Both the position numbers and the translations under genes were made by a program. Of a DNA stretch of 64,000 nt, positions 3,398 to 62,547 are shown piece by piece. Positions within the stretch are counted from its first letter, which is position 1. Each line of letters opens with the position of its first letter. Below the pieces are notes generated by a model that saw only the letters and a list, made by a program, of their open reading frames with translations, was not told where the DNA came from and did no database searches. The DNA is from Gemmatales bacterium (GTDB lineage Bacteria > Planctomycetota > Planctomycetia > Gemmatales > HRBIN36): the NCBI GenBank assembly GCA_025060195.1, contig JANXCQ010000003.1, forward strand, positions 722-64,721, read 5' to 3'.

Positions 3398-5431
3398 TTA
3401 GGCGCTCTCGAGGGCTTTTTGCAGAGCAGCGCGGGGGTCGGAGTAGAAGATGGGGTCGATGCGTTCGACGATTTCGCTGGGCACGTCGGTGAATGCGCGT
3501 TTGTTTTCCAGGGGTAGCAAAGCGCGGCGTGCGCCGTTGTCCATGGCCACTTGGAGCGGTTCGATGAGCGAGCGTAAGGCTTTAATGGTACCTTGGATGC
3601 TCAGGTCGCCTAGCACTACCATGGCAGGTCGTACCGATTGGCGGCGCAGGGCTGAGTAAACGGCCACGACGAAGGCTACGCCGACTTCGCAGCTAGCGTG
3701 GTTCCCTAGCAGGTCAATGGCTTCGACCTGGAAATCGGTTGCGTCGAGTAGTTGGCGTATGCCGAGGAATTCCTTTTGCGTTTGCAGGTAGCTGAAGGCG
3801 CGGTCAATGGAATCCCGGAGTTTCCTGTCGGTTACGCCGACGTTGCGGAGTTTTCCGGTGCCTGCGGCACAGCCGACTTCGAGGCGGTAGAGTCCGACCT
3901 TGCCTTCGTCATCTACGGAAGCGGCATAGACCGAGCCCGGGGGTAGCGGGTCGCTGGAAATGGCCTGACAGCCGCCTTGTTCGGGAACGCCCACAAAGCG
4001 CTCCTCGCGAGTATCCTGGTCAATGAACGAGAACGAAGTTTGATGGTACTCGAAGGCGCCCATCTTTTTGAGTTGTTCTTTAACACGGCGTCGGCCTTCG
4101 AGGGCGAGTTCGAGGAGTTCCGCCAGTTCTTCTTTGGTGTATTCGCCGTGGGGATAGAGCAATTTGATCAGGCCGGAGACGGTTTTTCGCACTGCTTTGA
4201 CATCGCGTGCGTTGAGATGGCTGCCCAGGAGGAAGTAACGGTCAATGGCCTCGGTGTAGTTATGTTTGCGGAGTTCGCGTAGGGCCTCGGCCAGGTAGTC
4301 CACGACGAAGCCGTAGTGGTCGGTGAAGAATTCGACCCGCATTTTGGGAATTTCCCACCCGGGCAGGTAGAAGTGGATACGGTCGAGAAAGGCGAGGTCT
4401 TCGCGGATGACGTCGGGCATGGGCAGGAACAGGTGCGAGGTCCGTACCATGACTTCCACGGGCTGGTTGGTATTGCCGAACATGGCGATGGAGGCCATGC
4501 CTGTGAGCGAATCTTTGCCGCGGGCAAAGGTGCCGGATTCGCAGTAGGTTTTCAGAGTGGTGACGACCTCTTTGGGCATTTTTTGGAGGTCGGCGACTTC
4601 GTCGAAGGCGATGGCGTCCCAGATACCGACCAAGCCGATGCGGTTGGTGGCGATGTTATAAAACAGGTTGGCGACGGTGGTGGGGCCGGTGAGCAGGATG
4701 GCGTAGGGCGAGAGTTCCTGATAGGCGTAACTTTTGCCGGTGCCGCGTGGCCCGAGTTCGACCAGATTGTAGTTGCGTTCGCATAGGGGTATGAGGCGAA
4801 CGAGCAGGAGCATCTTGACCCGGCGGGAGAACTGGCTCGATTCCAGGCCCATGGTGCGGATCAGGAGGTCGAGCCATTCGTCGGTGGTGAAATGGCGGCG
4901 GTTTTGGCGGTATTCTTCGAGGTCGAAGGTGGCGATTTGGATCGGCTTGAGTTCATCAATCCAGAATGGGCTGCGTTTGGCCGGGCCGTGCGCTTCTGCG
5001 TCGTACTGATGGCGAAGTTCAATTTGGGCCCAGATGCCGCCTACCAGCAGCCGGTCGTATTTGCGGATGTAGTGGTCGGGAATGTGGACGTAGCGGTGGC
5101 CGAAGTTTTTCAGTTCCGCCCAGTATTTGTCGTCGTCGGAGACATAACGGACTTGGACTTTGTCAATGAAGGTGTGTCGGCCCTTGTCGCGGACGAGCGC
5201 CTGGGCTTTATTCGATTCGTCGGGCCGGACGTAGTGGGAGGCGAGGGTATTGTGCACGACGCGCATGCCTGCCTCGATAGCCACAGGGTCGTTCGTGGCG
5301 CAGTATTTTCCCAGTAGATATTCCAGCACGAACACGGGAACGTTGGCCCCGACTTTGACCTTGCGAACCAGGTCTTTGCGAACGACTTTACCGGGGAAGA
5401 CTTCGCTGACCTTTTGATCCAGTTCCGACAT
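3398..5431 (-). CDS. brxL: BREX Lon-like protease BrxL
   Basis: The intact 677-aa ORF begins MSELDQKVSEVFPGKVVRKDLVRKVKVGANVPVFVLEYLLGKYCA..., with an AAA-like core (ELGPRGTGKSY) and a Lon-protease-like C-terminus. It is the last gene of the BREX operon, starting 9 nt after the pglZ stop. Confidence 0.88.
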   Translation of the reverse strand: MSELDQKVSEVFPGKVVRKDLVRKVKVGANVPVFVLEYLLGKYCATNDPVAIEAGMRVVHNTLASHYVRPDESNKAQALVRDKGRHTFIDKVQVRYVSDDDKYWAELKNFGHRYVHIPDHYIRKYDRLLVGGIWAQIELRHQYDAEAHGPAKRSPFWIDELKPIQIATFDLEEYRQNRRHFTTDEWLDLLIRTMGLESSQFSRRVKMLLLVRLIPLCERNYNLVELGPRGTGKSYAYQELSPYAILLTGPTTVANLFYNIATNRIGLVGIWDAIAFDEVADLQKMPKEVVTTLKTYCESGTFARGKDSLTGMASIAMFGNTNQPVEVMVRTSHLFLPMPDVIREDLAFLDRIHFYLPGWEIPKMRVEFFTDHYGFVVDYLAEALRELRKHNYTEAIDRYFLLGSHLNARDVKAVRKTVSGLIKLLYPHGEYTKEELAELLELALEGRRRVKEQLKKMGAFEYHQTSFSFIDQDTREERFVGVPEQGGCQAISSDPLPPGSVYAASVDDEGKVGLYRLEVGCAAGTGKLRNVGVTDRKLRDSIDRAFSYLQTQKEFLGIRQLLDATDFQVEAIDLLGNHASCEVGVAFVVAVYSALRRQSVRPAMVVLGDLSIQGTIKALRSLIEPLQVAMDNGARRALLPLENKRAFTDVPSEIVERIDPIFYSDPRAALQKALESA

Positions 5432-5440
5432 GGCGGACTC

Positions 5441-6493
5441 CTAGATGGCAATGGCGACCTCGACGGTCAACGGGGTGGCCAGTTCCACGTGGGTGGCGCT
5501 ATCCACCAGGTGGATCGTGGCCGTGGGTTGGTTGATGTCTTCTTCGAGCATCAGGGCGATGGTGTTGGGTTCAACTTGTTGCGGATCGGCGTCGGAGAAT
5601 TTCAGGTGGACGTCGCCTGTCGCGTCGTCGAAGCCATACGAAGCGCTCACTGGTCGGGACACTACTTTTCGACCGGCGCGGATTTCGACGCGCACCTGGG
5701 GGAGTTCGGCGCCGAAGAGGCTGGATTCGGTCGCCTGGCCGGAAACGCGGACGGAGAAGAACCGCGTGGTGATCTTGGCGGCGCCGGGGGTAAGTGTCCA
5801 GGCCATGGGGCAGAATCGCGGACGTGGCTTTGCCTTGGCCGTTACTGTCAGTACCGGGATGATCATTTCCTGGGGCGAGACCCCGCCGTGGAAGTAAGCC
5901 CGATTGCCGCTTTTACAGCGAAACACGGCAAAGCCTTTGGGCGTGGCGAATTCCAGGTCGGTTTCCAGGCCGAAGCTCTGTAACGGTACGCGCCACGAGG
6001 ACGGTGCCGAAGTGCCGGCGGAACCGAGCCAAAGGCGCCGCCGCAAGTTGACCGTGGAGCCTGCGGGAGGCTCGATTTTCATGGGCTCGGTGGTTTCGTC
6101 GGCGAAAAGGTAACCGTGGTCGGCGGTGAGGATGATGATGGTGAATCCGTGCTCGACCAGGATACGGACGACGCGCCGCAGCTGAGCCAGCAAGGCGTTC
6201 ATATGCAGACGGGCTTGGGCGATGTTATCGGTTTCGCCCAGTTCGTCAATTTCCTGCGAGGTAACTACCAGGAGCGTTGCCTGGGCCAGGTCTTGTTCCC
6301 GGCGTTTATTCGGTTTGGGCAACAGTTGTTCCAATTTACAATCCCGCACGTTGCAGGACACGCGTTCGCGGATATACTGGAGACGGTCTTTACGGTCTGC
6401 GATGACTCGTGCGCCGATTTTCACGCCAAGGCGACCGTCCTTGAGCGCGACCAACCCCAGGGATTGGTGCGCTTCGGGCAGCAAGGCGGCCAT
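5441..6493 (-). CDS. pglZ: PglZ, C-terminal fragment (PglZ/alkaline-phosphatase-like domain remainder), separated from the N-terminal fragment by an in-frame TAA
   Basis: It starts MAALLPEAHQSLG... and contains LTADHGYLF (the DHG metal-ligand motif). It is in the same frame as ORF 6500-8032, since both end coordinates are 1 mod 3. Confidence 0.85.
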   Translation of the reverse strand: MAALLPEAHQSLGLVALKDGRLGVKIGARVIADRKDRLQYIRERVSCNVRDCKLEQLLPKPNKRREQDLAQATLLVVTSQEIDELGETDNIAQARLHMNALLAQLRRVVRILVEHGFTIIILTADHGYLFADETTEPMKIEPPAGSTVNLRRRLWLGSAGTSAPSSWRVPLQSFGLETDLEFATPKGFAVFRCKSGNRAYFHGGVSPQEMIIPVLTVTAKAKPRPRFCPMAWTLTPGAAKITTRFFSVRVSGQATESSLFGAELPQVRVEIRAGRKVVSRPVSASYGFDDATGDVHLKFSDADPQQVEPNTIALMLEEDINQPTATIHLVDSATHVELATPLTVEVAIAI

Positions 6494-6499
6494 ACCGAC

Positions 6500-8032
6500 T
6501 TAGGTGACCGTGGGCACGGTGGCCAAGGCGGGACGCAGTTCGACTTGGAAATCGTTTTCGAGCAAGCGGGCCAGTTCCCGTCCCATCTCGAACCGCAGGG
6601 CATCCACCCAGACGTAAGCGACTTTCTGGCCGCTTTGCAGGTGGGGTTTGACGACTTTTTCGAAAATTTCGCGTTGCTGGAGCAACGCCTTGGCGGGGAA
6701 TCTGGTCTTGTGGAGCAGGTCGAAGAACAGTTCGGCCAGCTTGGTGCCGACGGTTTCATACTCCTGGCGGGCCCGCGTGGTCAGTTTGTGCAGTTGGTCG
6801 TAGTCGTCCTCGGCGGTAAACTCGAGGTTATGGCGGCGTTGTTCGAGGTGGCGGTGACAGGTATCGAGGAGGCACCAGGGTTGGTCGGAGGCGGCGTAGG
6901 CGTGCACCAGTTCGGCGAGGCTGGACGGCGGCGATTGGAGTTGTTGGCGGATGTGGTCGGCGCAGAGAAGTAGTTCGGCGGCCACGGCTACCAACGCCCA
7001 ATACGCCTGGAGGGTCGGTTCCACTTCGGCCCAGAAACGCGAAAGCCGCCGCTGCGCTAACTCCAGCAGCTCGCGCCGCGGGCCTTCGAGCAGTTGTTGT
7101 TCGGCGTATTGGAGCAGGACTTTGTCCAGCACGGGGAAGGTTTCCAAGTGCTGACAGGCAAGCGCGGGCAGGGGGAGCCGGTGCAGTTGATACTGTTGTT
7201 CGACCTGGCGGGCCCAGGCGCTATAGCTGTCGCGATATTCCCGTTGATTCCGCCAGGCCTGGGCCAAGCGCAGACAGGCATCCCGGGCCAGCGGATTCTG
7301 GGCCACGGGCACGGAAGCTAACGTGGACGGCCAACTCTCCTTCAGACCGTGATACAGTTCGCTGAGCAACACATGGCGCGCGAAGTGTTCCCGTAACATG
7401 GTCAGCGAGACGCCGTCGCGCACCGACAGTTGGAATCGTTCGCCCAGCATCTCGCGCAGTGGTTGGACAAGTCGTTTTTCCTCGAGAGCGGCGTCGTATT
7501 TGTCGCTGGCGACGAAACGCAGGGCGACTTCCTCGGCGTCGTCGCTGCCGAAGACCGACTTGAGCAAGGCGGAGAGCGGTTTGTGGGGTGCAGCCAGGGC
7601 GTCCAGGAAAGCCAGGTCGAGTTGCTGCTGGTCGAGGCGTTCGAGCACCGCGGCCAGGTCTTTGTCGGGGAGCATGCCTTGCAACACCCGCCGGGCGAGC
7701 ACGCTGGGGCGCGTGTTGTGGGTCAGCGACGGATGCCCCGGACGCAACACGGTGCCCGCGGCTTCCAACTCAACCAGGGCATGGTGCGTATCGGCCGGGT
7801 CGCACGGTACGTACACCAGCAAGCGGGGCGGTTGTTCGTCGTTGAGCAAGGGGTCCACTTCGTAGCGCAGTTGGAAAAAGCTGTTGTTGCAGGTTACGAT
7901 CTTGGCGTCGGGCAGCGTTAGCTGGTCAACTACGGGACGATAGAACCCCTGGGGGTCGTACCAGACGACGATCCCATGCTTGTCGAGCAGTTCGGCGAGC
8001 AACTTGGTGACGTAGTCGCTGACGGCACCCAT
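6500..8032 (-). CDS. pglZ: PglZ, N-terminal fragment, ending at an in-frame TAA (6500-6502)
   Basis: It begins MGAVSDYVTKLLAELLDKHGIVVWYDPQGFY... and ends ...VAYVWVDALRFEMGRELARLL...ATVPTVT*. Reading across the stop gives TVPTVT*VGMAALLP, the conserved PxxT..GMAALLP segment of PglZ. Confidence 0.85.
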   Translation of the reverse strand: MGAVSDYVTKLLAELLDKHGIVVWYDPQGFYRPVVDQLTLPDAKIVTCNNSFFQLRYEVDPLLNDEQPPRLLVYVPCDPADTHHALVELEAAGTVLRPGHPSLTHNTRPSVLARRVLQGMLPDKDLAAVLERLDQQQLDLAFLDALAAPHKPLSALLKSVFGSDDAEEVALRFVASDKYDAALEEKRLVQPLREMLGERFQLSVRDGVSLTMLREHFARHVLLSELYHGLKESWPSTLASVPVAQNPLARDACLRLAQAWRNQREYRDSYSAWARQVEQQYQLHRLPLPALACQHLETFPVLDKVLLQYAEQQLLEGPRRELLELAQRRLSRFWAEVEPTLQAYWALVAVAAELLLCADHIRQQLQSPPSSLAELVHAYAASDQPWCLLDTCHRHLEQRRHNLEFTAEDDYDQLHKLTTRARQEYETVGTKLAELFFDLLHKTRFPAKALLQQREIFEKVVKPHLQSGQKVAYVWVDALRFEMGRELARLLENDFQVELRPALATVPTVT

Positions 8033-8069: not shown

Positions 8070-11000
8070 TTACGGCGTGGCGCGGACCAGGCCTTTTTGC
8101 CGCAATTGCTGGGCGATGGACGACCACGGATACTTCCCCGCGAGCAATTCGTCCCAATATTTTTTGGCTTCCTTCCAAGGGACGAGTTCCCACAAATGGG
8201 CGATGGTGAGCACGACGCCGTCATCGCGGTCGGGGCGCAGCTGCAAGCGGGCGGCACGCTGCAATTTGTCGGCGAAGTCGCGCAGTTCGCTGAGCAAGTC
8301 TTGCTGGCGTTCCAGGTCGCGGTCCAGCCGCTTACTGACGTTGCCCGCGGCCTGGGCCTTTTGTTGTTGCAAGGCGGCGAGGCGATTTTCCTCCCGGCGG
8401 ATTTTCGGTTCGACGTAATGCAGCCTCGCTTTAAACAGCAGGTCCTCGTCGAGCTGGTGATAGTAAAGCCACAGGGCGAAGTTCCCTTTAGAAGATTGTA
8501 GCAGCCAGTAAATCGGGGCTTTGCGTCGGCTTTTGGAATAGCGGGCGAGGTGGTCGTGCCAGAAACCGCCCGGGCCGGCGCGACGGAAATATTCCCGCAG
8601 GTCGCGCACGCCCAGGGCGCGGCAGGCTTCCTGTTCGACCTGTTCGGCGGCGTCGCCCCAGAGCAGGTCAAAGACGTCGCGGACGCGGCGGACGATGTCG
8701 TCGGTATGTTCGGGGTCGTCCACCAGGATGCCGTTCCACTGAATGGCCAGCGGATAGCCGGGCGGTGTTTCGCTCAACGGCAGACCGTCTTCTCCCTGGA
8801 GCATCCCCGGCGGACACACCGGCAGCGGGTCAAACGGATCGGGCAACGGCGGCGCTGCTTTCTCCCCCGTCGCATACCGCACATCCCACCGCCCAAACAC
8901 ACACCCCACCGCGTAAGAGATAACTTCCCGTGCTCGTTTTGCCCGATCGTCTAGCTGTTTCTCGTCGCTCGCATCGCCATTATCATCATCAAACCAGCCT
9001 TGATTATGCACGGCGACAGTTATGGACAAAGCTTCCAATTGAGCTCGCTCTTGCTCGTTCAAGCCGTAGGCTTCGTAAATAATGTCGTCAATCAGTTGGG
9101 ACGGCTTACTCGGGGGCTCAGGACGAGTTTGGTAGGAGGTAAACTCGTGTGCAGTCTCGTCGTAGTTTTTGTATAGTGCGAACTTATAACACTTTTGAGC
9201 CTCCGCAACGAGAATACTCGAATACTTTCGAAGATCTGGGTAGGGGACGATTCCCAATACTCCAACTTCATAAGATTTGGCGATCATGGAAGTGCCAACA
9301 ATTAAGTCCACTAAGCAGCTAAAAGCGGATGAATTCATGAACGCTAAGGCAAGCCATAAATCCGTCTCGTTGGTGGCAAAACCGCCGCTGCCTTTGACCG
9401 AAATTATCGCTCCCGCATTGAGCACTCTCGGCCCGAACCTTTTCGAGGTGCGTTCACTCCATGTCAATCCTGGGCGAAAGTAGTAATCGGTGTTTCGAAG
9501 GCATGAATAGGGGCGTCCCGTCTCGGGGTCTCTGAAATTCCTAATTTCCTCCCCGTCGCGTTCCCAATTGATGACGAGGTGTAAGTCGGCGTAAAAGGGA
9601 CTATACTCGCCGCCCTTGGCGAAGGGCACCCAGCGTTTGCCTTCGAAGGTGCGCTGGCGGCACCATTGTTGAAAGGCCTTGAGGTCGCGGCGCCAATCGG
9701 GACCGTGGCGGGCATCGAGGATCTTCTGCGGGTCCACTTCCCACCAACAGCGAACGAAGCGAAAATCGTCGGCGGTTTGGAGCCCGACGCGCACGGTGCG
9801 GCCTTCGCTCTGGAACGGGGGCAGTTCGCGGAACAAGCGACGAATCCGCTCGGAGACCCAATAGGCGAACGGGCTGCCCGGGACCAGGCGAAATTGCTCA
9901 GGCGCCACCGGGAAGACGTCGGGGTGAGGCTGGTCGGCGAGGTAAGCGGCCCGGGCCTGGGCCAACGCCTCCGCTTTGTTCTCATGGTGCAACATGCGGA
10001 AAAACACGGTCGGCGCCGCGGACGGTGCGGCGGACGGAGTCGCTTTGGCCAAACAGTAGGCGGCAGTTTCGACCATGGCGGTGTCGAGCACGCCATAGCC
10101 CAGGTCGGCCACCACCAGGAGCCGCGCTTCCCGTAATAAAACTTCTTCCCGCCATTTCTGGAAACTGGAGAGGAAAAATCCAGTGCGGCTGGTCAGGGCG
10201 CCCAGCAGTCCGTCCGGGAGCAGACGCCGTAACGCCATTTCCACAAACGCCGCATACAGGTTATGTTTACTCCGCGGATAAGCCCGTTCCAGATAGGCCT
10301 TGAGCGCTATGGGATAGTCGCCATAGGGCGGATTCATCAGGATGACGTCGTAGCGCTGGTGGCACAATTCGACGAAAGCCAGTCCCTGGGCGGTATCCTC
10401 GGCAAAGAGCCGGCGCTGCAGACCGCGTCCGTTATCGGCCCGCTGAGCATGGGCGCGTAAGGCGGCGACGACGCGCTGCTCGGCTTGTTCAAAGAACTGG
10501 GCATCGGACAAAGCGCTCACGGCAAAGAGCCGCGGCGGCTCGGAATCCGGGGCGTCGAACATCGTCCGCTGCCACGCCCCGCCCCCCGCGAGGAATTGCC
10601 GATGCGCTTCCTGGACGGCGTCGCGGAGGTCGTCCTCGATGAGTAACAGCGGCCCCGCTTCTCCGGCCAGTTGCATCTTGTCGAACACCACTTCGACCAA
10701 CTGGCCCAACAGCTGCGGCTCCAGGCTGGCCACGAACTCGCGGAGCAACTGGCGCTCGCCCGGCATCGGTTCGGCACATACGAGATGGGAACGGGTAATC
10801 TTGGGCCGCTCGCCACTTAGGCCGAATTGCCGATACGCCCGCTGACACCGCAGCCATAACGCCAACGCCGCCACCTGAATCGCCCGCGGATCGATATCCA
10901 GGCCGTAAAGATTCTCCGCCAGGATGAGCCGGGGCAGGTCGCGATACAGCGCCGACTTGTCGGGATAGTCGCGGCGAAGAGCGGGGCCCAGGTCGGGGTC

Positions 11001-11654
11001 GTCGTGGGCCTCGTCGTAAATGTCCAACAGCAGGTCGAAGCAGTAAAGCAGGAAATGGCCGCTGCCGCACGCCGGGTCGAGGATTTTCCAGAGCCGCGGA
11101 TCCTTTTTCGGTCGCCAAGCCGACGGCGAACGGTCGGGCACGAGATAGCGGCAGCGCTCGGTCAGGCGTGTCGCCCCGTGGCGCATTTCGTACCACAATC
11201 GGCCCAGCGTGTTATCCACGAGAAACTCGACCACATAGCGGGGCGTGTAAAACTGATTGCGAAAGGCCAGTTCGTAGGCGTTGCGCGGGGCGCGACTTTC
11301 CTGGCGTGCCTGGGTGCGTAGTTCCGTGGGCGTGAAATACTGATAGACCCAGCCGAGGGTTTCGTCATGGTGCCAGACGTCGGCCAAGGCGGGGTCGTTG
11401 AGACAGGCGAGCACCTGGTCGAGAGCCCGCTGCGGCGGATACAGCCGATTGGCCGGATCGTGCGGACTGAAGAGCACGCCGATCTCTTCCGCCAGCCGCT
11501 GCGCCAGCCAGTCGAGGAAATGGCGGTAGGCGAGTTCGTGCTGGCCCGCATAAAACAGCGCGATGCGCCTCGGGATGCTCGGCGAGGTAAAGCTGAAAGC
11601 CTTCGGAATAGACGCCGCGACTGACCGCTTCGCGAAAACGCTGCCCGCCGACAT
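8070..11654 (-). CDS. pglX: BREX methyltransferase PglX (paralogue 2), main fragment downstream of a frameshift
   Basis: Family-like sequence starts around 11570 (RRIALFYAGQHELAYRHFLDWLAQ...). It carries WVYQYFTP, FYTPRYVVEFLVDNTLGRLW, the SAM motif KILDPACGSGHFLLYCF and catalytic DVILMNPPYG. The BREX-PglX C-terminus reads PIYWLLQSSKGNFALWLYYHQL...VVLTIAHLWELVPWK. Confidence 0.88.
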   Translation of the reverse strand: MSAGSVFAKRSVAASIPKAFSFTSPSIPRRIALFYAGQHELAYRHFLDWLAQRLAEEIGVLFSPHDPANRLYPPQRALDQVLACLNDPALADVWHHDETLGWVYQYFTPTELRTQARQESRAPRNAYELAFRNQFYTPRYVVEFLVDNTLGRLWYEMRHGATRLTERCRYLVPDRSPSAWRPKKDPRLWKILDPACGSGHFLLYCFDLLLDIYDEAHDDPDLGPALRRDYPDKSALYRDLPRLILAENLYGLDIDPRAIQVAALALWLRCQRAYRQFGLSGERPKITRSHLVCAEPMPGERQLLREFVASLEPQLLGQLVEVVFDKMQLAGEAGPLLLIEDDLRDAVQEAHRQFLAGGGAWQRTMFDAPDSEPPRLFAVSALSDAQFFEQAEQRVVAALRAHAQRADNGRGLQRRLFAEDTAQGLAFVELCHQRYDVILMNPPYGDYPIALKAYLERAYPRSKHNLYAAFVEMALRRLLPDGLLGALTSRTGFFLSSFQKWREEVLLREARLLVVADLGYGVLDTAMVETAAYCLAKATPSAAPSAAPTVFFRMLHHENKAEALAQARAAYLADQPHPDVFPVAPEQFRLVPGSPFAYWVSERIRRLFRELPPFQSEGRTVRVGLQTADDFRFVRCWWEVDPQKILDARHGPDWRRDLKAFQQWCRQRTFEGKRWVPFAKGGEYSPFYADLHLVINWERDGEEIRNFRDPETGRPYSCLRNTDYYFRPGLTWSERTSKRFGPRVLNAGAIISVKGSGGFATNETDLWLALAFMNSSAFSCLVDLIVGTSMIAKSYEVGVLGIVPYPDLRKYSSILVAEAQKCYKFALYKNYDETAHEFTSYQTRPEPPSKPSQLIDDIIYEAYGLNEQERAQLEALSITVAVHNQGWFDDDNGDASDEKQLDDRAKRAREVISYAVGCVFGRWDVRYATGEKAAPPLPDPFDPLPVCPPGMLQGEDGLPLSETPPGYPLAIQWNGILVDDPEHTDDIVRRVRDVFDLLWGDAAEQVEQEACRALGVRDLREYFRRAGPGGFWHDHLARYSKSRRKAPIYWLLQSSKGNFALWLYYHQLDEDLLFKARLHYVEPKIRREENRLAALQQQKAQAAGNVSKRLDRDLERQQDLLSELRDFADKLQRAARLQLRPDRDDGVVLTIAHLWELVPWKEAKKYWDELLAGKYPWSSIAQQLRQKGLVRATP

Positions 11655-11979
11655 AGACCTGGTGGACTTCCATCATCTTGTAGGCACATAAGCGGTTCAG
11701 GTGGGTGAAAGCGACTTCGCGGACGAGTTGTTCCAGGGCGTCGGCGGGAGCGAAACCGCGGGCTTGGGCATGTGCGAGGTAATCGAGCAAATCGCGGCGG
11801 GCCTGCAGTTCCTGCGGCGTCAGATGCTTGAGCCGGGCCTCCGGTTCGATATGCAGGCGGCGCGCCCGTTCCAGACGAATGCCAAAGCGGCCCTCCAGTT
11901 CCTCGCGCAGGGCCGGTTCGAGGATGCGGCGACATTGGGAGACGGCGAGCCGCAGCTGATTCCGCGTCGCCTGGTCCAT
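11365..11979 (-). CDS. pglX: PglX (paralogue 2), N-terminal fragment upstream of a frameshift; only about 11979-11575 is family-like
   Basis: The fragment reads MDQATRNQLRLAVSQCRRILEPALREELEGRFGI...VREVAFTHLNRLCAYKMMEV...EGFQLYLAEHPE. It parallels the N-terminus of paralogue 1 (...RETAFTWLNRLVAFKMLEA...NGYLLWLADH). After about 11575 the frame yields Ala/Arg/Gly-rich nonsense. Frame 0 mod 3 here versus 2 mod 3 for the main fragment. Confidence 0.8.
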   Translation of the reverse strand: MDQATRNQLRLAVSQCRRILEPALREELEGRFGIRLERARRLHIEPEARLKHLTPQELQARRDLLDYLAHAQARGFAPADALEQLVREVAFTHLNRLCAYKMMEVHQVYVGGQRFREAVSRGVYSEGFQLYLAEHPEAHRAVLCGPARTRLPPFPRLAGAAAGGRDRRALQSARSGQSAVSAAAGSRPGARLSQRPRLGRRLAP

Positions 11980-11982
11980 AGC

Positions 11983-14187
11983 CTACTCCACGATCACAGT
12001 GCATCCCTGGTCGAGATGGCGTTGCACCGTGCGGCGGAGCTGGTCGAGGAAGGCCTCGAGGTCGTGGGACGATTGGAGCCGGCGGGGTACCAGGTCGGCG
12101 AGGCGTACCCGCACCTCGCGTGTCGTCGGCGTTTCAGGCGTCAGGCATGCGCGGAGCCGTTCCAGGACCTGGTCGCGAAACCCGCGCACTGCGGCCAGGT
12201 CGGATTCCAATTGCTCTAGCGAAGTGCGTGCGGGGCGCACGCCTTGGGCGACGTCGGCACGTTCCTGGTCGCGGCCCAGACGTTCGCGGAGCGCTTGTAC
12301 CATTCGTTCGGCCTGGAGACAGTCGCGTTGGGCCAGGGCCTGGTAGTCGGCGTGGTTTTGAATGTGTTCGAGGGCCTCGCGATAGGCAGCGGCGCGGCGG
12401 TCAAACAGATCGAGAAACACGCGCTGGTACGTTTGCCAAAGCCGCTCGGTGTGCTCCTGAAGCACGTCCCATTGCTCCAGGACGCGCTCGGATTGGAGGA
12501 GGTCCTCTAACTTGCGGACGCCGGCTTGCAGCGGTGCGGCCTCGTCGCGGCGAGCCAACTGCGGCCAAATCTGCTCGACGGCCAGGCGGGCCCGCTGGAA
12601 AGTTTGTAAGTGAGCCTCGGTGAATTGGTCGCGGTAGCGCCGCAGTTCGCGGTGCAGATGCAGCAGATGTTGGCCGTGTTCGTCGAGCAGACGCACGCGG
12701 TCTTCCCCCGAGGCGTCGCTCATCCGCCGCAACAGTTGCGCGTAGTCGTCGAGCCGGCGGGCGATCGGCAGCCGGTATTGGTTGACCTGGAGGCGCAGTT
12801 GCATCAGCTGGTCGAGCGTTTCCTGAGCGAACTGCTTGGCCACGGTGGCGATGTGCGTTTCCTCGGCCCGCACTTCCTGGCCCGTGAGATGCTCCAGGAC
12901 TTGCGCCGTCTGTTTGAGCACCTGCACGTCGAGGGAGCGCCGCGGGATAAACGCGGCCTGGCGGAAATACGACGGCTTGGCAAACAGGTTCACGGCCATG
13001 GGATCGTGGGCCTCGGTGAGGCGTTGGCAGCTGGCGAGCACCTCGATTTTGCGGGCGCGGAACAACGTGGCCAGCACCAAGCGGACAATCTCGGGGTCCC
13101 AGCCATAGGGCGGTCGGCGGAAATGTTGTTCCACCTCCTTGCCCAGCAACTTCTCGCGGTTGCCGTAGCTATGTTCCGTTTCCAGGTAGCCGAGCACTTC
13201 CTTGACCAGCGGGGCCGACATGTCCAGGACGAAGTGGCCTTCTTGCTGCTTGACCAGTGCGGCCTGGGCGTCGAGCGCCCGTAACACGTGGGCGACGTCC
13301 CGCAGGTCGTGGGCCTGGAGAATCCGCTCCACCTCCGTGCCGCTGGGTTGGAACGTGGCCAGGCTCAGCTGCGGATAAATGCGGGGCACTGCGGCGGCGA
13401 GTAACCGTTTGAGCTTTTCGGAGAAACTTTTGCTCGCGGTGCCGGCGTCGTGGACCCCGCCGGGATCCTGCACGCCGCGAAACATCCCGCTCCCCTGGCT
13501 TAGCGCTTCGCTCAACTTGGTGCGCAGTTGCTGGGCCAGGTTATCCAGACGGTTCTTTTCCTCCTGGAGCAAGGCGGCTTCGACCGGGCTGAGTTGCTTC
13601 TGCGCCCGTTGTTCTTCGTAGGTTTGCACCATGCGCTGCGAGGCGTAATATTCGGCGATGAGGCGATCGATCTCCGGCGTCAGGCAGAAGACCCAGAAGA
13701 CGGCCTGTTCACGGGCGCGCTCGCGGCTTTCTTGGCGGACTTCCTCGACGCGGGTACTGAAGGCGTCGAGGTCGTCGGCCACGGCCAGGTGCAGTTCCAG
13801 TTCCCCTTCCTCGAGGAGCGGCGTATCCTCCAGCTGCACGCGGAGACGGAAGCTCCGCAGGTTCTGATAGCGATACGTTTTCAGCTCCGGTTCGCTGAAG
13901 ATGTCGCGGAGGAAGTTGCGTAACACTTCCCGCCGGTCGCGTTGCCGGGGTTCGAGATATTCCGCGCGTTTCCGTTCCCAGGTTTTTTCCTGAGCGGTCT
14001 GGAGTTTCCATCCTTCGTCGGTCTGGCGGATGAACTGGCCCTGGCTCAGGCGTTGCAGCGCCGCCTCGACTTCGCGCGCGGGCTTATTCTGCCCCACAGC
14101 ATCCACGAGGAAGGCCGCGATATTGGCAGCGGTCCGGGGAAGGTCGCGGACGAACTCCAACAGACAGATCACCTTGGCCACGCGCAA
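11983..14187 (-). CDS. brxC: BrxC (PglY-like ATPase), C-terminal fragment downstream of an in-frame TAG
   Basis: This 734-aa fragment is in the same frame as 14257-15666 (both 0 mod 3). Reading across the stop gives ...VYDLVEDNLS*ERRHDLDQIRERLSLDPQDQGWSLRVAKVICLLEFVRDLPRT.... It is a long helical region typical of the BrxC C-terminal half. Its stop lies 3 nt before the pglX start. Confidence 0.82.
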   Translation of the reverse strand: MRVAKVICLLEFVRDLPRTAANIAAFLVDAVGQNKPAREVEAALQRLSQGQFIRQTDEGWKLQTAQEKTWERKRAEYLEPRQRDRREVLRNFLRDIFSEPELKTYRYQNLRSFRLRVQLEDTPLLEEGELELHLAVADDLDAFSTRVEEVRQESRERAREQAVFWVFCLTPEIDRLIAEYYASQRMVQTYEEQRAQKQLSPVEAALLQEEKNRLDNLAQQLRTKLSEALSQGSGMFRGVQDPGGVHDAGTASKSFSEKLKRLLAAAVPRIYPQLSLATFQPSGTEVERILQAHDLRDVAHVLRALDAQAALVKQQEGHFVLDMSAPLVKEVLGYLETEHSYGNREKLLGKEVEQHFRRPPYGWDPEIVRLVLATLFRARKIEVLASCQRLTEAHDPMAVNLFAKPSYFRQAAFIPRRSLDVQVLKQTAQVLEHLTGQEVRAEETHIATVAKQFAQETLDQLMQLRLQVNQYRLPIARRLDDYAQLLRRMSDASGEDRVRLLDEHGQHLLHLHRELRRYRDQFTEAHLQTFQRARLAVEQIWPQLARRDEAAPLQAGVRKLEDLLQSERVLEQWDVLQEHTERLWQTYQRVFLDLFDRRAAAYREALEHIQNHADYQALAQRDCLQAERMVQALRERLGRDQERADVAQGVRPARTSLEQLESDLAAVRGFRDQVLERLRACLTPETPTTREVRVRLADLVPRRLQSSHDLEAFLDQLRRTVQRHLDQGCTVIVE

Positions 14188-14256
14188 CGACCAGCCCTGA
14201 TCCTGCGGGTCGAGGCTGAGCCGTTCCCGAATCTGATCCAGGTCGTGCCGACGTTC

Positions 14257-15666
14257 CTACGAAAGGTTGTCTTCGACCAGGTCGTACACCTTGTCGAGCG
14301 TGACCAGCGCGCCGATGGGCTTTTGGGCGTAGTTGGTGCGTTCGTGCACGAGCATTTCGTAGGTTTGTTTGATGATGGTGCGGTTACTGCCGCCCAGGTG
14401 CCGCGATTCGCCCAACTGTTGCCGCAATCCCGACATGATGCTGATGCACAGATCAATGTAATGCGGTGGATAGGGATAAAAGTGGGCGAACTCATCGGCG
14501 CTGAGATGGGTGTGCCGCGTGGTGCGTTCCAGGCTCAGCGCCTCATGGAGCACGCCTTCATGCTGGCGGAACAGCTCGCGCAACAGATGCTCCCCCTCGG
14601 GTTTCTTGGCCAGCACTCGTTTCGACGCCACTTCGCGAATGTCCGAAGGCGGCAAGTCCACGCGGATGCTGAAGCGGTCTTGCAACTTGGCCAATTCGAC
14701 CCGCCGCGCATCTAACGACGACACCACCTCGTCGAGCTTCTCCTGCGAGGTCACGATGATCCAGCACGGGGCGGGAATTTTGCCTTGTTTGACGAGATTT
14801 CTGCCCACCCGGCCAAACTCTTCAACGGTGGCGCGGAGGTCTTCGATTCTCTCCTCGCTGGTGGCGACGTGTTGGCCCACTTCGTCAATGATGAACACCA
14901 AAGCCTGTCCGGGGCGGCGCCGGCCCCATAACTCAAAAGTCCGTTGCACGATCTTACTGACCGAAAGCGGTTCGCGGCGTTGGCCGTGGACTTGGGCCCA
15001 GGAATCGGCCGTGGGGTACGTTTTCGGATCGAGCCGATGCAGGATGCTGCTGGTGCGGGCCAGGCGTTGCGCCCCTTTGCGGACGCGGCGCCACGGTTGC
15101 TGGTGCAACTCCAGACACAGCTGCTCCAACTCGGCCAGGCGACCTTCCGCTTCCAGTTCGATTTCCAGTTCGGCGAGGTCGAAATCCTCGGCGTAATCGA
15201 GTTCGCGGAGCAACACACGGTACATGATTTCCGCGATGCGTTGCGTCGCCAGGCGGGTGTCGCGTTCCTTGGCCACGTCGAAGAAGATCACCCCCGTACG
15301 CCACCGGGCATGGATATTATCCAACAGGTCGGCCAGTTCCGGGTCGTCCATGCGCTCTTTGAACCACTCGGCAAAGGGGCGCCCGCGGATGCGGGGATTG
15401 TGCAGAGCGTAGCCGAGATTCTTGACGAACGAGCTTTTGCCCGAGCCGAAGAAGCCCGAAACCCACACGCCGATCCCTTCGCGCAGTTCGCTCGGCGCCT
15501 CGGCCATGGCCCCGAGCAATTGCCGATAGTGCGCTCGGATACTCGGCGTGGCCACATACTCCATGATTTCCTGATAGACCGACTCCTCATCGGCCTGATC
15601 CACTTGGATGATTTCCTGGATTTTGCGAGACAGGTCGCGGGCGATGATTTCGCCGATGGTCTTCAT
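14257..15666 (-). CDS. brxC: BrxC (PglY-like P-loop ATPase), N-terminal fragment, ending at an in-frame TAG (14257-14259)
   Basis: The true start is the ATG at 15666 (MKTIGEIIARDLSRKIQEIIQVDQADEESVYQEIMEYVATPSIRAHY...). Walker A is GFFGSGKSSF. Its ATG overlaps the TGA of the upstream gene (ATGA at 15663-15666). The 721-aa ORF-track entry 14257..16422 is an artefactual upstream extension. Confidence 0.85.
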   Translation of the reverse strand: MKTIGEIIARDLSRKIQEIIQVDQADEESVYQEIMEYVATPSIRAHYRQLLGAMAEAPSELREGIGVWVSGFFGSGKSSFVKNLGYALHNPRIRGRPFAEWFKERMDDPELADLLDNIHARWRTGVIFFDVAKERDTRLATQRIAEIMYRVLLRELDYAEDFDLAELEIELEAEGRLAELEQLCLELHQQPWRRVRKGAQRLARTSSILHRLDPKTYPTADSWAQVHGQRREPLSVSKIVQRTFELWGRRRPGQALVFIIDEVGQHVATSEERIEDLRATVEEFGRVGRNLVKQGKIPAPCWIIVTSQEKLDEVVSSLDARRVELAKLQDRFSIRVDLPPSDIREVASKRVLAKKPEGEHLLRELFRQHEGVLHEALSLERTTRHTHLSADEFAHFYPYPPHYIDLCISIMSGLRQQLGESRHLGGSNRTIIKQTYEMLVHERTNYAQKPIGALVTLDKVYDLVEDNLS

Positions 15667-16646
15667 GCGGACAACCCCCGATGCAGTTGCCGACTCAGGC
15701 TCGACCATGAATAGTGTCCCTGGAGCAGTTGCTGCCAATATTTTTTGGCGTCGGGGAAGGGCACCAGTTCCCACAGCGGTGCCAGGTTCAGCGCCACGCC
15801 GTCGTTGATATCCGGCACCAGGCGCAGTTCCGCGACGCGCCGCAGCTTCTGCTGAAAGTCGCGCAGTTCTTCGAGGCGTTCCAGTTGGTTTTCGATGTCC
15901 TGGGCGAGTCGTTTGGCTTCGCGGGGCAGTCGGGAGCGGCTCTCGCGGGGCGGCAGCGTTGTGGTGCTGCCAGCGCTGGCGCTGCCGGCGTGCGACGCCT
16001 GCCACGCCGCAAAACGGGCCCGCAGTTCGGCCAAGCGCTTTTCTTCCCAGCGGCACCGCGGTTCCACCACCTTGTGCAGCACCTTGAAGAGCGTGTCCTG
16101 GTCGTAGCGTCGGGCAAAGAGCCACACGCCGAAGTTTTTCCGCCCCGACAGCAGCAACCAGTAGATCGGGCGCTTGCGATATTGCGACAGAGGGCGTTTG
16201 AAAAACGGCAGGGCCAGGTCGTCGGCCAGACGGTCGAGCACCGGACCCGGGCCACACGCCTCCGTGACTATAACTTCCGCCGCGGCTTCGCCGTGACGCC
16301 CTTCCAGGACGCGCCACACCGCTTCGGCCAGGGGACGACCCGCTTCGCAAAAGGCTTCCGCTTCCAGGACGCGGCCGACGGCCCAACTGAGCCACGCCTG
16401 GGCCAAACGCGTCCGGGTCCACGCCGCGGGAGGCGCCTCCGCTTCCTCGCTCGGTTCGTCCTCGGGCTCGGCGTCGTCATCGGCCGCGGGACGCGCCGCT
16501 AATTCCGCCTCGATGGCCCGACGGTCGCTCTCCGAGATGCCGTAGAGCCGATACACTTCCTCGTCGATTTCCCATTCGATTTCCGCCAACTGGCGATGGC
16601 GCTCGGCCACACGCTCCACGCCGTCAGGCCAAGCCGGCGGTTCCAC
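15663..16646 (-). CDS. PglX-like methyltransferase (paralogue 1, pglX'), C-terminal fragment after an in-frame TAG
   Basis: The fragment contains ...EWEIDEEVYRLYGISESDRRAIEAEL...PIYWLLLSGRKNFGVWLFARRYDQDTLFKVLHKVVEP...INDGVALNLAPLWELVPFPDAKKYW. This matches the PglX paralogue 2 C-terminus block for block. It shares the frame (2 mod 3) with 16680-17114 and 17163-19448. Confidence 0.85.
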   Translation of the reverse strand: MEPPAWPDGVERVAERHRQLAEIEWEIDEEVYRLYGISESDRRAIEAELAARPAADDDAEPEDEPSEEAEAPPAAWTRTRLAQAWLSWAVGRVLEAEAFCEAGRPLAEAVWRVLEGRHGEAAAEVIVTEACGPGPVLDRLADDLALPFFKRPLSQYRKRPIYWLLLSGRKNFGVWLFARRYDQDTLFKVLHKVVEPRCRWEEKRLAELRARFAAWQASHAGSASAGSTTTLPPRESRSRLPREAKRLAQDIENQLERLEELRDFQQKLRRVAELRLVPDINDGVALNLAPLWELVPFPDAKKYWQQLLQGHYSWSSLSRQLHRGLSA

Positions 16647-16679
16647 GAAATCCCACGTCGTTTCGTCCTCCCGACTATC

Positions 16680-17114
16680 CTACTTCGCTAACTCAATCGC
16701 TTGCTCCACCAAACGCTCCAGCTTCTCGCTCGACTGCTGCGGTATCGGCAACCGCGATAGATCCCCGACTTGAGTATTTACTGTCGGATTAACCAAGGTG
16801 ATCAGGTGATAGAACATACTGCTATTCATGACACCAAGTATTTGTGGAACATTGTCGGCAAATAGCCCTGCAGTTGCGTCGGCAAAAATAAAGCCCTCGG
16901 GCATCAGTCTAGCACTGAATCGGCTCGAGCTGACCTTGGGACACGTGATGCCGCGGCGGAAGTAGTGTTCCGTGTTCCTAACTACCCATTCCCACTTTCC
17001 GTCTAGGTATGAATAACGTTCGCAAACATAAGCTTTGATTTCGGCGCCGTCGTTTTCCCAATTCACGACATATTCCTGATTGCCATACCATCGGCGAAAC
17101 CTGCCACCTTTCAT
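16680..17114 (-). CDS. PglX-like methyltransferase (paralogue 1), middle fragment between an in-frame TGA and an in-frame TAG
   Basis: MKGGRFRRWYGNQEYVVNWENDGAEIKAY...NTEHYFRRGITC... aligns with paralogue 2 FAKGGEYSPFYADLHLVINWERDGEEIRNF...NTDYYFRPGLTW. It ends at the TAG at 16680-16682. Confidence 0.85.
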   Translation of the reverse strand: MKGGRFRRWYGNQEYVVNWENDGAEIKAYVCERYSYLDGKWEWVVRNTEHYFRRGITCPKVSSSRFSARLMPEGFIFADATAGLFADNVPQILGVMNSSMFYHLITLVNPTVNTQVGDLSRLPIPQQSSEKLERLVEQAIELAK

Positions 17115-17162
17115 GTAGGGGAACCAGCGTTTTTTCGACTGTTTGGCTTCCTCGGCGTTTTT

Positions 17163-19448
17163 TCAGTCGAAGGCGATCCGCTCTTTGCCCACCTCCCACC
17201 AGAATCGGACGAAGCGGAAGTTATCTGCCGTGGTTAACCCCGGCCGCACTGCGGCCACGTCGCCGAGTTTGGGTAAGGTCTGGAACAGGCGCCGCAGGCC
17301 GGGCGTGATCCAATACACCCAAGGACTGCCGGGAATGGCGTCGAAGTCGGCTTGACGATAACGGAACACGGCGGGGTCTAGGGCGCTGGCCTCGCTCGTG
17401 GGCGGAGCGCTGGCGCCGCTCGTAGCGGCTTGGAACGCCTGACGTAACGCGGCGAGGGCCCGTTCCAGGCGCTGGCGTTTGCTTGGCGCATCGGGTTCCT
17501 TGACCAGTCGAAAATACGTCGCGACCGCCTCGGCCCGCCGCCGCTCATCGCTCTCCTTCCGCAGCACGAGCAACGCCGTATTCACCTTCGCGCCCGCGAT
17601 TTCCTCAAACGCTTCCGTTCCGAGATGGGCTAAGGTTTCGATCACGTGTTCTTGCAGCAATTGCTGCCGCAGCCGTTCGTAACTGGAAATGAACATGAAC
17701 GATTGTTGCGTCACCATGCCGAGCCGACCGCCATCTGAGAGTAGTTGCGAACCGCGGAGCAGAAAAGCCGCATAAATGTCCGTCTTTCCCTCGGGGTAAT
17801 GTTTGGCTAAGAGGTCTTTGATCACGGGGTCGAGATTCCACGCTGTGCTATAGGGCGGATTGGTAACGACCACGTCGTAGGTCTGATCTAACAGTTGGAG
17901 CAAGCGCAGGCCTTGGACGGTCTCGCCGGCAAAGAAAGTCTGGGGGATGCCCCGTGCGTCCTGGTCGCGGGCCAATTGGTCGAGGGCGTGGCGAATCTGG
18001 GCCAGGAGCGTGTCCCAAAAGTGACGCCGCGCCGCTTCCGAGCCGAATTGTTCCCGACTCCAGCCGAATAAATCGGGGTTGCGACCCGCGCGCTCGTAGC
18101 GTTGGCGTTCTTCCTCGACCAGGGCGCGAATCCGCCGCTCCAACGGCAGCAACGAGCCCAAATACTGCGACCGCTGAAGTTCTTCCTGCAACGCGGTGAG
18201 AATCCTTTGGTAGATGGGCCGCTCGCCCAGTCCTGCCTGACGCAGGAACGTGGCTAACCGCTCGCCGTCGAGCATGTGCACGTTGGCGCAGGCTAACCGC
18301 GATTCGCGGAGCGTCCGCCCGGGAGCCAGCGTCTTGGCCTTGAGATAAAGCGCCAAAGCGGCGATCTGCACCGCCCGCAGGTCAATATCAATGCCGTGAA
18401 GATTTTGCTCCAGAATCGCCGCGGGGATGTCCTCGGGATGGTCCACCGGAGGCTGCGCCGGCCAGCCCGGTTGACCCGCCCGCGCCATTTCTTCCTGGTA
18501 CATCTCCACAAACAGGTCGAACGCCACTAACCCGAAATGCATGGTACCGCACGCGGGATCGAGTAATTTGATTTCCCGCACGCTGCGAATCGGCCGTTTC
18601 AATTCCGCAGGGGTGAGCGCCTCGGGAAGCAGATAGTCCAACTTGGAGCGCAAATTGGAATCGGGATGAAGTTGGAGCCATAAGCGACCCAACGTGTTGT
18701 GCACCAGGAAACGCACCATCCACCGCGGCGTGAAAATCTGCGTGGCCGCGGGTAAATCCTCGGCGGAGATTTTGCGTTTGTGCTTGTAAAGTTGCTCAAA
18801 GATGTGGGCCTTCTCCTCTTCGACGAAAAACTGATAGACCCAGCCGAGGGTTTCCTCATTGCCGGGCTGCCAGGCTTCGGCGAGTTGGGGTTGGTTGAGG
18901 GCGTGGGCCACCTCGCGGAGCACGGCCAAGGGGGGTGCGAAGCGGGAAGCCAGATTATCCGGGTCAAACAACACGCGAATCTCCCGAGCGAGCTGACGGC
19001 AGCAGTCGAGGAGGAAACGTAAGTAAGCAGCGTCGCGCGATTCGCCCCCGCGTTGATGCTGGAGCCAGGCGTCGCGATGGTCGGCCAGCCACAGCAGATA
19101 CCCGTTGGAGTGATCCCAGCGGGAAATGGTTTCGCGGAGCCAGCGCCGGGCCTCGAGCATCTTGAACGCGACCAGGCGGTTGAGCCAGGTGAAGGCCGTC
19201 TCCCGCAGAAATTGCCGATACGCCTGCCGCGGGGTCAGGCCGCAACGCTGCAGGTCGTCGAAATGCTTGAGCAAGGCAGCGCGTAAGGAGCGACCTTCGT
19301 CGTCGAGATGCCGCAGCGGGGCGTTGGGATCGGCCACCAGTTGGCCCGACTTTTCGTAGAGGTCGTACTGGCCTTCCAGAAGCTCCGCGACGGCGCGTTC
19401 CAACCGGGCGCGGGCGTCGAGTGCCAGTCGGCGAAGCAGTTGCCGCAC
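17163..19448 (-). CDS. PglX-like N6-adenine methyltransferase (paralogue 1), N-terminal and catalytic fragment, ending at an in-frame TGA (17163-17165)
   Basis: The fragment carries WVYQFFVEEE, IFTPRWMVRFLVHNTLGRLW, the SAM motif KLLDPACGTMHFGLVAF and catalytic DVVVTNPPYS, and ends ...ADNFRFVRFWWEVGKERIAFD*. The start is uncertain. I propose the GTG at 19448, the first start codon after the brxB stop at 19466, aligned with the paralogue 2 N-terminus. The ORF-track extension to 19928 overlaps brxB and is not credible. Confidence 0.82.
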   Translation of the reverse strand: MRQLLRRLALDARARLERAVAELLEGQYDLYEKSGQLVADPNAPLRHLDDEGRSLRAALLKHFDDLQRCGLTPRQAYRQFLRETAFTWLNRLVAFKMLEARRWLRETISRWDHSNGYLLWLADHRDAWLQHQRGGESRDAAYLRFLLDCCRQLAREIRVLFDPDNLASRFAPPLAVLREVAHALNQPQLAEAWQPGNEETLGWVYQFFVEEEKAHIFEQLYKHKRKISAEDLPAATQIFTPRWMVRFLVHNTLGRLWLQLHPDSNLRSKLDYLLPEALTPAELKRPIRSVREIKLLDPACGTMHFGLVAFDLFVEMYQEEMARAGQPGWPAQPPVDHPEDIPAAILEQNLHGIDIDLRAVQIAALALYLKAKTLAPGRTLRESRLACANVHMLDGERLATFLRQAGLGERPIYQRILTALQEELQRSQYLGSLLPLERRIRALVEEERQRYERAGRNPDLFGWSREQFGSEAARRHFWDTLLAQIRHALDQLARDQDARGIPQTFFAGETVQGLRLLQLLDQTYDVVVTNPPYSTAWNLDPVIKDLLAKHYPEGKTDIYAAFLLRGSQLLSDGGRLGMVTQQSFMFISSYERLRQQLLQEHVIETLAHLGTEAFEEIAGAKVNTALLVLRKESDERRRAEAVATYFRLVKEPDAPSKRQRLERALAALRQAFQAATSGASAPPTSEASALDPAVFRYRQADFDAIPGSPWVYWITPGLRRLFQTLPKLGDVAAVRPGLTTADNFRFVRFWWEVGKERIAFD

Positions 19449-19465: not shown

Positions 19466-20053
19466 TTACCCGTAGATTTTCACGCGATAATTGCCCCAGG
19501 CCAGGCGGTCTTTCAGGTTCATGAGGCGCAGTCCAAAAGTGCCTTCGCGGGAACCGGGGTAGAACAAGACGGTGGGCACCTGCGTGCGGCCGTGGAGTTC
19601 GTCGAGCAACTTCGACACGGGATACAGCCCGGGCGCCAACGCCGCGACGCGGGTCAGAAACACAATGTCGCGGGCAGGATGCAGACCACTGTAGTGGCTG
19701 AGCACTAAGTCGGCCAACGGACACCAATCGCGATCCGAGAGATAACAGGTCACCTGCTCCTGGGCTGGGAGAAAGCCCCATTGGCGTTCCAATTGCACCA
19801 GGGCATCGAGTCCCTCGGACTGGGCGATGGCCTGCCAGAGCAAATCGGACATCCGCACCACGTGCACGGTTTTCTGCGCCGCTTCCAGGCGCGTCTGGAG
19901 CAACCGGAGTTCGCGCCGCAGCTGCCATTCCTCGCTCGGATCGTAGCGCAGAATGGCAAAGGGGAGATCGTGACAGACAGCAATCCGCGGAGGCACCGCT
20001 TTCAGGTCATCTTCCAGGAGCTTGAGCCGCTCGCTCAACGAGGACATGGGCAT
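19466..20053 (-). CDS. brxB: BREX protein BrxB (DUF1788 family)
   Basis: The intact 195-aa ORF has ...PFAILRYDPSEEWQLRRELRLL...VLFYPGSREGTFGLRLMNL...GNYRVKIYG, the typical size and C-terminal YPG...NYR signature of DUF1788. It is the second gene of the operon. Confidence 0.8.
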   Translation of the reverse strand: MPMSSLSERLKLLEDDLKAVPPRIAVCHDLPFAILRYDPSEEWQLRRELRLLQTRLEAAQKTVHVVRMSDLLWQAIAQSEGLDALVQLERQWGFLPAQEQVTCYLSDRDWCPLADLVLSHYSGLHPARDIVFLTRVAALAPGLYPVSKLLDELHGRTQVPTVLFYPGSREGTFGLRLMNLKDRLAWGNYRVKIYG

Positions 20054-45021: not shown

Positions 45022-45027
45022 GGCCTA

Positions 45028-62544: not shown

Positions 62545-62547
62545 GCC

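Follow-up and report, generated by a model that had tools for sequence, protein, structure and literature searches.

The window (the whole stretch of 64,000 nucleotides analysed here, from a metagenome-assembled genome of the Gemmatales) carries a type 1 BREX operon on its minus strand, in the order brxA, brxB, upstream pglX, brxC, downstream pglX, pglZ and brxL. The complete type 1 gene set (brxA, brxB, brxC, pglX, pglZ and brxL) lies in one co-oriented cluster, with an extra pglX between brxB and brxC. Not all of these core genes are intact. The operon holds five disabling mutations in four genes (pglZ, brxC and both pglX copies), and three genes are whole. Of the latter, brxL (3398-5431, minus strand; 677 aa) scores 957 bits against the PADLOC BrxL profile and 1056 bits against NCBIfam TIGR02653 (cut-off 628), and is 79% identical to its counterpart in a related operon on JGI contig Ga0484961_0001099 (L006) across residues 1-672. 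Likewise, brxB (19466-20053, minus strand; 195 aa) matches the Pfam BrxB family and is 67% identical to L006 BrxB over 195/195 residues. The third, brxA (20007-20843, minus strand; about 278 aa), is recognized by both Pfam and PADLOC BrxA models, and residues 1-271 of L006 BrxA align to 20843-20031; a longer brxA reading frame of 372 aa proved to be a spurious 5′ extension.

The lesion in pglZ is an in-frame TAA at 6500-6502 (minus strand), flanked as ACG GTC ACC TAA GTC GGT ATG. When 8032-5441 (minus strand) is translated as a whole, it gives a single frame with one internal stop (...ATVPTVT*VGMAALLPEA...), at codon 511 of 863. The stop leaves two fragments. The 5′ fragment (6503-8032; 510 codons) encodes the N-terminal and central domains, followed by the start of the alkaline-phosphatase-like domain with the Asp of VDALR and the Thr of PTVT. 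The 3′ fragment (5441-6493, or 5444-6493 without its own stop; 350 codons plus stop) encodes the rest of the catalytic domain (TADHG, and His715 in HGG) and a C-terminal beta-barrel region. It opens at the conserved Met of GMAALLP, an ATG at 6491-6493 that lies 6 nt past the stop; the interval 6494-6502 used in the original prediction is the TAA plus the two codons preceding this ATG. The 510-aa protein of the 5′ fragment is identical to an annotated protein of the Gemmatales MAG GCA_033581835.1 (contig JAVQSM010000001.1).

Profile searches show that the two fragments belong to one gene. Against the PADLOC PglZ models, the 5′ fragment scores 182 bits (positions 8-504 of 840 in PDLC02561) and the 3′ fragment 177 bits (positions 519-847 of 860 in PDLC02559), and on both profiles the matched stretches adjoin: 8-504 and 508-799 on PDLC02561, 2-515 and 519-847 on PDLC02559. 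The Pfam PglZ domain PF08665 (179 positions) is divided in the same way, with positions 1-44 on the 5′ fragment and 93-176 on the 3′ fragment. The stop cuts through the domain, and this is why each fragment alone falls just below the Pfam cut-off (21.4 and 24.7 bits against 25). The rejoined protein reaches at best 231 bits against the NCBIfam PglZ models (cut-off 400), and 162 bits against TIGR02687 (cut-off 270); full-length homologs of 860-901 aa are 52-53% identical to it over 100% of its length. By profile models this is a PglZ, but one that lacks a single uninterrupted catalytic-domain polypeptide. The claim that an in-frame TAA splits PglZ between its catalytic motifs is borne out by the translation and the adjoining matches, and the blocks assigned to each side (WVDALRFE and PTVT on the N-terminal fragment, LTADHGYLF on the C-terminal one) are present in the conceptual translation.

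The residue lost to the stop, the object of a check suggested with the original prediction, can be read from alignment. The stop immediately follows the codon of the catalytic Thr (T510) and stands in a column that is Glu in 119/119 of the closest homologs, within the motif P-T-[IV]-T-E-[IM]-G-M-A-A-L-L-P. Judging from these codons, a single-base GAA>TAA change would most simply account for its origin. The same column is occupied by Gln or Thr in solved PglZ structures (PSYT-Q-LGMAALLP in 9nv3_C and PSYT-T-LGMASLLP in 9zn5_B). The Met of GMAALLP after the stop had been called conserved, and it is Met in all 119 homologs.

[quoted passage not shown] Alignment with PDB PglZ chains equates T510 and H715 (in YFHGG) with T538 and H741 of Escherichia fergusonii PglZ, and the spacing from Thr to His is 205 residues here against 203 in E. 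fergusonii and in 9nv3_C (T519/H722). In the PorX model, T510 falls at profile position 267, which corresponds to PorX T272 after a 5-residue difference between protein and model length. In E. fergusonii PglZ, T538 and H741 belong to the metal site, and nuclease activity is lost or lowered when they are mutated; the T538A substitution abolishes both phosphodiesterase and nuclease activity and lowers defence about 1000-fold (PMC12205998). According to the conceptual translation and the PDB alignment, the whole metal-site set is still encoded in the window (the VDALR Asp, the T538-equivalent Thr, the Asp-His of TADHG and the H741-equivalent His). The VDALR Asp and T510 of PTVT lie upstream of the stop, and the TADHG Asp-His and H715 of HGG downstream of it. 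Since T510 and H715 map to the essential T538 and H741, the cut falls within the catalytic domain (Pfam position 44 of 179). Missing from the N-terminal product is some three quarters of the alkaline-phosphatase-like domain (Pfam positions 45-179 of 179), and with it the metal-site residues of TADHG and HGG. With T510 and H715 on opposite sides, the stop does separate motifs of one active site, as had been proposed.

The split active-site anatomy of the original prediction stands; what it missed is that brxC and the two pglX genes carry lesions as well. The brxC gene (11983-15666, minus strand; 1227 codons) is collinear with residues 1-1222 of L006 BrxC, and at 14257-14259 (codon 470) an in-frame TAG breaks it. 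The homologous proteins run as one chain for 1215-1240 aa, and 115/120 have Asn in the TAG column. The upstream pglX, or pglX2 (15663-19448, minus strand; 1261 codons, with the NPPY motif), shares 67% identity with an intact L006 PglX of 1223 aa and carries two stops: a TGA at 17163-17165 (codon 762), where 80/107 homologs have Cys, and, in a variable column, a TAG at 16680-16682 (codon 923). The downstream pglX (8070-11979, minus strand) is frameshifted near 11548-11565. A tblastn search with the intact 1310-aa L006 PglX, together with a reading of the junction in three frames, puts the opening ~138 codons in frame -2 (11946-11545) and the remainder in frame -3 (11633-8079), and the body of the gene scores 711 bits against the NCBIfam BREX-1 PglX model. 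The view that the operon has stops only and no frameshifts was overturned by the tblastn searches with L006 proteins that revealed this lesion.

An unusual feature of the layout is its pair of full-length pglX genes (8070-19448 in the window; 6330-18052 in L006): the first stands between brxB and brxC, and the second follows brxC, in the canonical slot. In two relatives with a single pglX (L007 and L009), it is the ortholog of the upstream copy that sits in the canonical slot. The stop codon of the upstream pglX overlaps the start of brxC (ATGA, 15663-15666), and the same junction occurs in L006, which suggests that the extra methyltransferase is translationally coupled to brxC. The BREX diversity survey PMC12839542 gave no text match for a split/pseudogenised PglZ or for two pglX copies.

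Elsewhere in the window no interrupted gene was demonstrated. The same-frame neighbours found there, such as PFOR alpha/beta and SelB/SelA, are ordinary separate genes, and on that ground window-wide recoding was rejected. A pair of ORFs at 61555-63291 (plus strand; 329 and 247 aa) shares one frame with only a TGA and one codon between them. The pair, a possible single gene with an in-frame TGA, has no Pfam or NCBIfam match, and similarity to the sole related metagenome contig is confined to the final ~70 residues.

How might a PglZ cut at this place still work? One possibility is a functional two-piece enzyme, in which translation terminates at the TAA, reinitiates at the ATG two codons on, and the halves reassemble into an active protein. 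Some features are compatible with it: the distance of 6 nt from stop to ATG suits termination-reinitiation, motifs are kept in both halves, and brxL downstream is intact. The break itself, however, is not at a domain boundary: it falls at Pfam position 44 of 179, within the catalytic domain, and it deletes the invariant Glu. The ATG had been described as a ready-made restart codon, a description that does not hold up well. A GGAG/AGGA-type Shine-Dalgarno motif precedes most real starts of the operon (brxC is an exception), but none precedes the ATG at 6493, and its Met is the ancestral, invariant residue of the motif. Moreover, with brxC and the two pglX genes disabled, a working PglZ would have no use here.

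Homologs speak against a natural two-piece PglZ as well. All 119 closest homologs are single chains of 860-901 aa, and none (0/119) is split at the position of the stop. We also searched the 3′-fragment protein against 1.84 billion representative proteins and inspected the best 150 representatives for short starts. Most are proteins of 850-900 aa matched at about residues 510-860. Five are short (342-363 aa; P0391, P0403, P0461, P0483 and P0492, at loci L091-L095) and start at the GMAALLP Met or at most 2 residues from it. All five lie at the ends of contigs of 1.2-1.8 kb with the frame open to the edge, and where upstream sequence is present it reads through with a sense codon (e.g. SVPSITEVGMAALLP and FPSITKVGMAALMP). 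We rejected them as natural split genes; they are contig-end truncations. No genuine split PglZ was present among the best 150 of the 1.84 billion representatives. A common and conserved two-gene split at this same position, the observation that would have counted most against an abnormal break, was found neither in the homologs nor in these 150 representatives. Catalogue entries for a 'PglZ' of 342-363 aa starting near the GMAALLP Met risk being mistaken for natural split genes. Taken with the features of the stop itself, we regard a functional two-piece PglZ as very improbable.

A second possibility is that the stops are decoded, through programmed read-through or recoding, for which suppressor tRNAs, selenocysteine insertion at TGA, or suppressors that a phage supplies and that thereby turn defence on might serve. 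The lesions are indeed mostly in-frame stops (four against one frameshift), and the TGA of pglX2 stands at a Cys column (80/107 homologs) in a window that also contains selA and selB. Yet all three stop codons (TAA, TAG and TGA) are used across the operon's lesions. Three stop types plus a frameshift mean that no single reassignment accounts for the locus. With Cys as the usual counterpart of the pglX2 TGA, and with selB and selA side by side at 43078-46455 (plus strand), selenocysteine was tested directly. No SECIS-like hairpin follows this TGA: the 69 nt from the TGA fold with z = +0.94, and 173/200 shuffles fold at least as well. The window contains no tRNA genes, tRNA-Sec included, and no Rfam matches. 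We rejected selenocysteine at this TGA on the lack of a SECIS-like structure and of an Rfam match; the signature of a selenoprotein or recoded stop (a single reassigned stop codon, with a SECIS element 3′ of the UGA) is absent. From a Cys codon, TGY>TGA is a one-step nonsense route.

The other stops give no better sign of decoding. Among the four stop contexts, no downstream fold significantly beats its shuffles; the best is that of the TAA (z = -1.66, with 14/200 shuffles at least as good). A GC-rich hairpin (GCGCACCAAUCCC...GGGGUUGGUCGCGC) lies at 6436-6475 (minus strand), about 30-60 nt past the TAA, and folds barely better than shuffles, for which reason we did not count it as a signal. 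In E. coli, UAA terminates efficiently when a G follows it. Single-nucleotide differences in the broken genes, discussed below, are mostly nonsynonymous, which also counts against decoding. As an explanation of the locus, read-through or recoding has in our view only a few chances in a hundred. The options implied by the original prediction (reassembly, read-through or reinitiation yielding a working enzyme) find no support, with the invariant Glu removed and the partner genes broken.

A more speculative version would hold that the operon is silent but recoverable. The excess of stops over frameshifts (4:1) would then not be chance, and the genes would be expressed when suppression rises (e.g. 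by phage-borne suppressor tRNAs), or would yield split subunits by reinitiation. We consider this a very long shot.

Least probable of all is that the stop is a sequencing, assembly or binning artefact with GAA or another sense codon as the true reading: the source is a metagenome-assembled genome, but four stops and a frameshift are identical in the MAG and in two separate runs differing at 5-7 SNPs, and random errors are not expected to cluster in a single operon. The identical pglZ TAA is found in the NCBI MAG contig and in the Logan assemblies of SRR15826899 and SRR15826900, the latter a hot-spring metagenome of project PRJNA761511 (PMC13172421). A sense codon at this position, which the original prediction had allowed for, occurs in none of the three assemblies. 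The Logan contigs differ from the window by 5 and 7 SNPs with zero indels, and all four operon stops and the frameshift recur in the MAG and in both of them. The pglZ stop is real and not an assembly artefact. As the TAA is carried by assemblies that differ in SNPs, it is common to slightly different strains of a natural population.

We therefore take the pglZ TAA, with a probability of roughly 0.9, to be a loss-of-function nonsense mutation in a recently pseudogenised type 1 BREX operon of a hot-spring Gemmatales population. It is the five lesions across four operon genes that lead us to read PglZ as dead: pglZ is a dead gene, and not a naturally split or recoded enzyme. The TAA in pglZ, most simply a changed GAA (Glu) codon, ends translation directly behind the catalytic Thr, and the other four lesions independently disable the ATPase (brxC) and both methyltransferases (the pglX copies). 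BREX methylation needs PglZ, BrxC and PglX (and also brxB), and restriction generally needs all six proteins (PMC13326643, PMC9009780). With these genes broken, neither methylation nor phage restriction should be able to operate, and the intact brxA, brxB and brxL would be leftovers that are still unhit. The lesions are probably recent relative to the age of the lineage, yet older than the diversity among the sampled strains.

Several lines of evidence bear on this timing. In the broken genes, about 3.4-4.1% of random single-base changes would create a stop, and by estimate the four stops would accompany ~100 neutral substitutions across some 13.6 kb (~0.7% divergence). That so little divergence suffices for four stops fits a recent death. 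Among the three assemblies, the broken genes show 5 nonsynonymous and 2 synonymous SNPs, against 0 nonsynonymous and 3 synonymous in brxL plus the pglX body, a contrast over 10 sites that is not significant on its own. One of these differences lies at 14270 in brxC, 4 codons before the TAG, where the window encodes Asp and 120/120 BrxC homologs have Gly. A strain variant (L003, from SRR15826900) retains the ancestral Gly, and the Asp is derived and segregating. Small as the numbers are, the SNP pattern points to relaxed constraint after inactivation.

Longer decay is a different matter. Residues invariant in their families have been lost at 17/150 positions in PglZ and 26/251 in BrxC, which might be taken as proof of a long decay. 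That argument was withdrawn, as the intact brxL is proportionally as diverged. The BREX proteins of the window lie uniformly farther from those of three relatives (L006, L007 and L009) than the relatives' proteins lie from one another, by a distance ratio of about 2.2 for intact brxL and about 1.9-2.0 for brxC and pglZ. Given that brxL is equally diverged, the losses of invariant residues reflect a deep lineage and not long decay. Nor was a uniform mutational signature established: GAA>TAA and TGY>TGA would both be G:C>T:A changes, and just two of the four ancestral codons can be inferred. Four nonsense mutations to one frameshift is nonsense-heavy for neutral decay, and this counts against the pseudogene explanation. 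Exact-pattern scans of metagenome and genome collections gave no matches for an ancestral allele. When the adjacent rpsB was used to look for a sister genome, the best match reached only 70% identity, and no BREX genes stood beside rpsB in 80 loci.

Read as a pseudogenised operon, the locus is a routine instance of defence-system loss, and its practical value lies in annotation. In the MAG, a pseudogene label is due to both PglZ-domain ORFs, both BrxC ORFs and all four PglX fragments, and surveys of defence systems should leave the genome out of their BREX-positive count. Only decoding of the stops, which is very unlikely, would make the locus truly interesting.

The comparison with known systems leads to the same place. 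The E. fergusonii/Salmonella PglZ (BrxZ; PDB 9nv3 and 9zn5; PMC12205998) has the same domain order and the motifs VDALR, P-[ST]-x-T, TADHG and HGG, and type 1 BREX PglZ occupies the same operon slot, between pglX and brxL, as in the window. What sets the window gene apart is its interruption by TAA one codon past the catalytic Thr, at a residue that is Glu in its own clade and Gln/Thr in the structures. Closest in layout is L006, which has the same order (brxA-brxB-pglX-brxC-pglX-pglZ-brxL, including the pglX/brxC overlap), is the closest relative with two pglX genes, and encodes the closest homologs of several of the window's BREX proteins. Unlike in the window, every BREX gene of L006 is intact, and identity between the two is just 52-79%. 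L006 and L009 (16920-17566) also carry a Phd/YefM-PIN toxin-antitoxin pair between pglX and pglZ, and L006 has a 23S-rRNA-IVP family gene after brxC (these additions to L006 lie at 13707-14084 and 18129-18751); all are absent from the window operon.

The nearest precedent for the lesions themselves is the StySA BREX system of the Salmonella laboratory strain ER3625, whose silencing traces to the mutant alleles pglZu and brxCu; the pglZ mutations there include a premature stop, which was polar on brxL (PMC9009780). The two cases differ in several respects. ER3625 has a laboratory history and retains wild-type pglX, whereas the window represents a natural hot-spring population with lesions in both pglX copies. 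The premature stop of pglZ is close to the C-terminus in ER3625 but mid-domain in the window. The Gemmatales operon shows silencing of the ER3625 type, in a wild population and further advanced, with nothing outside known biology.
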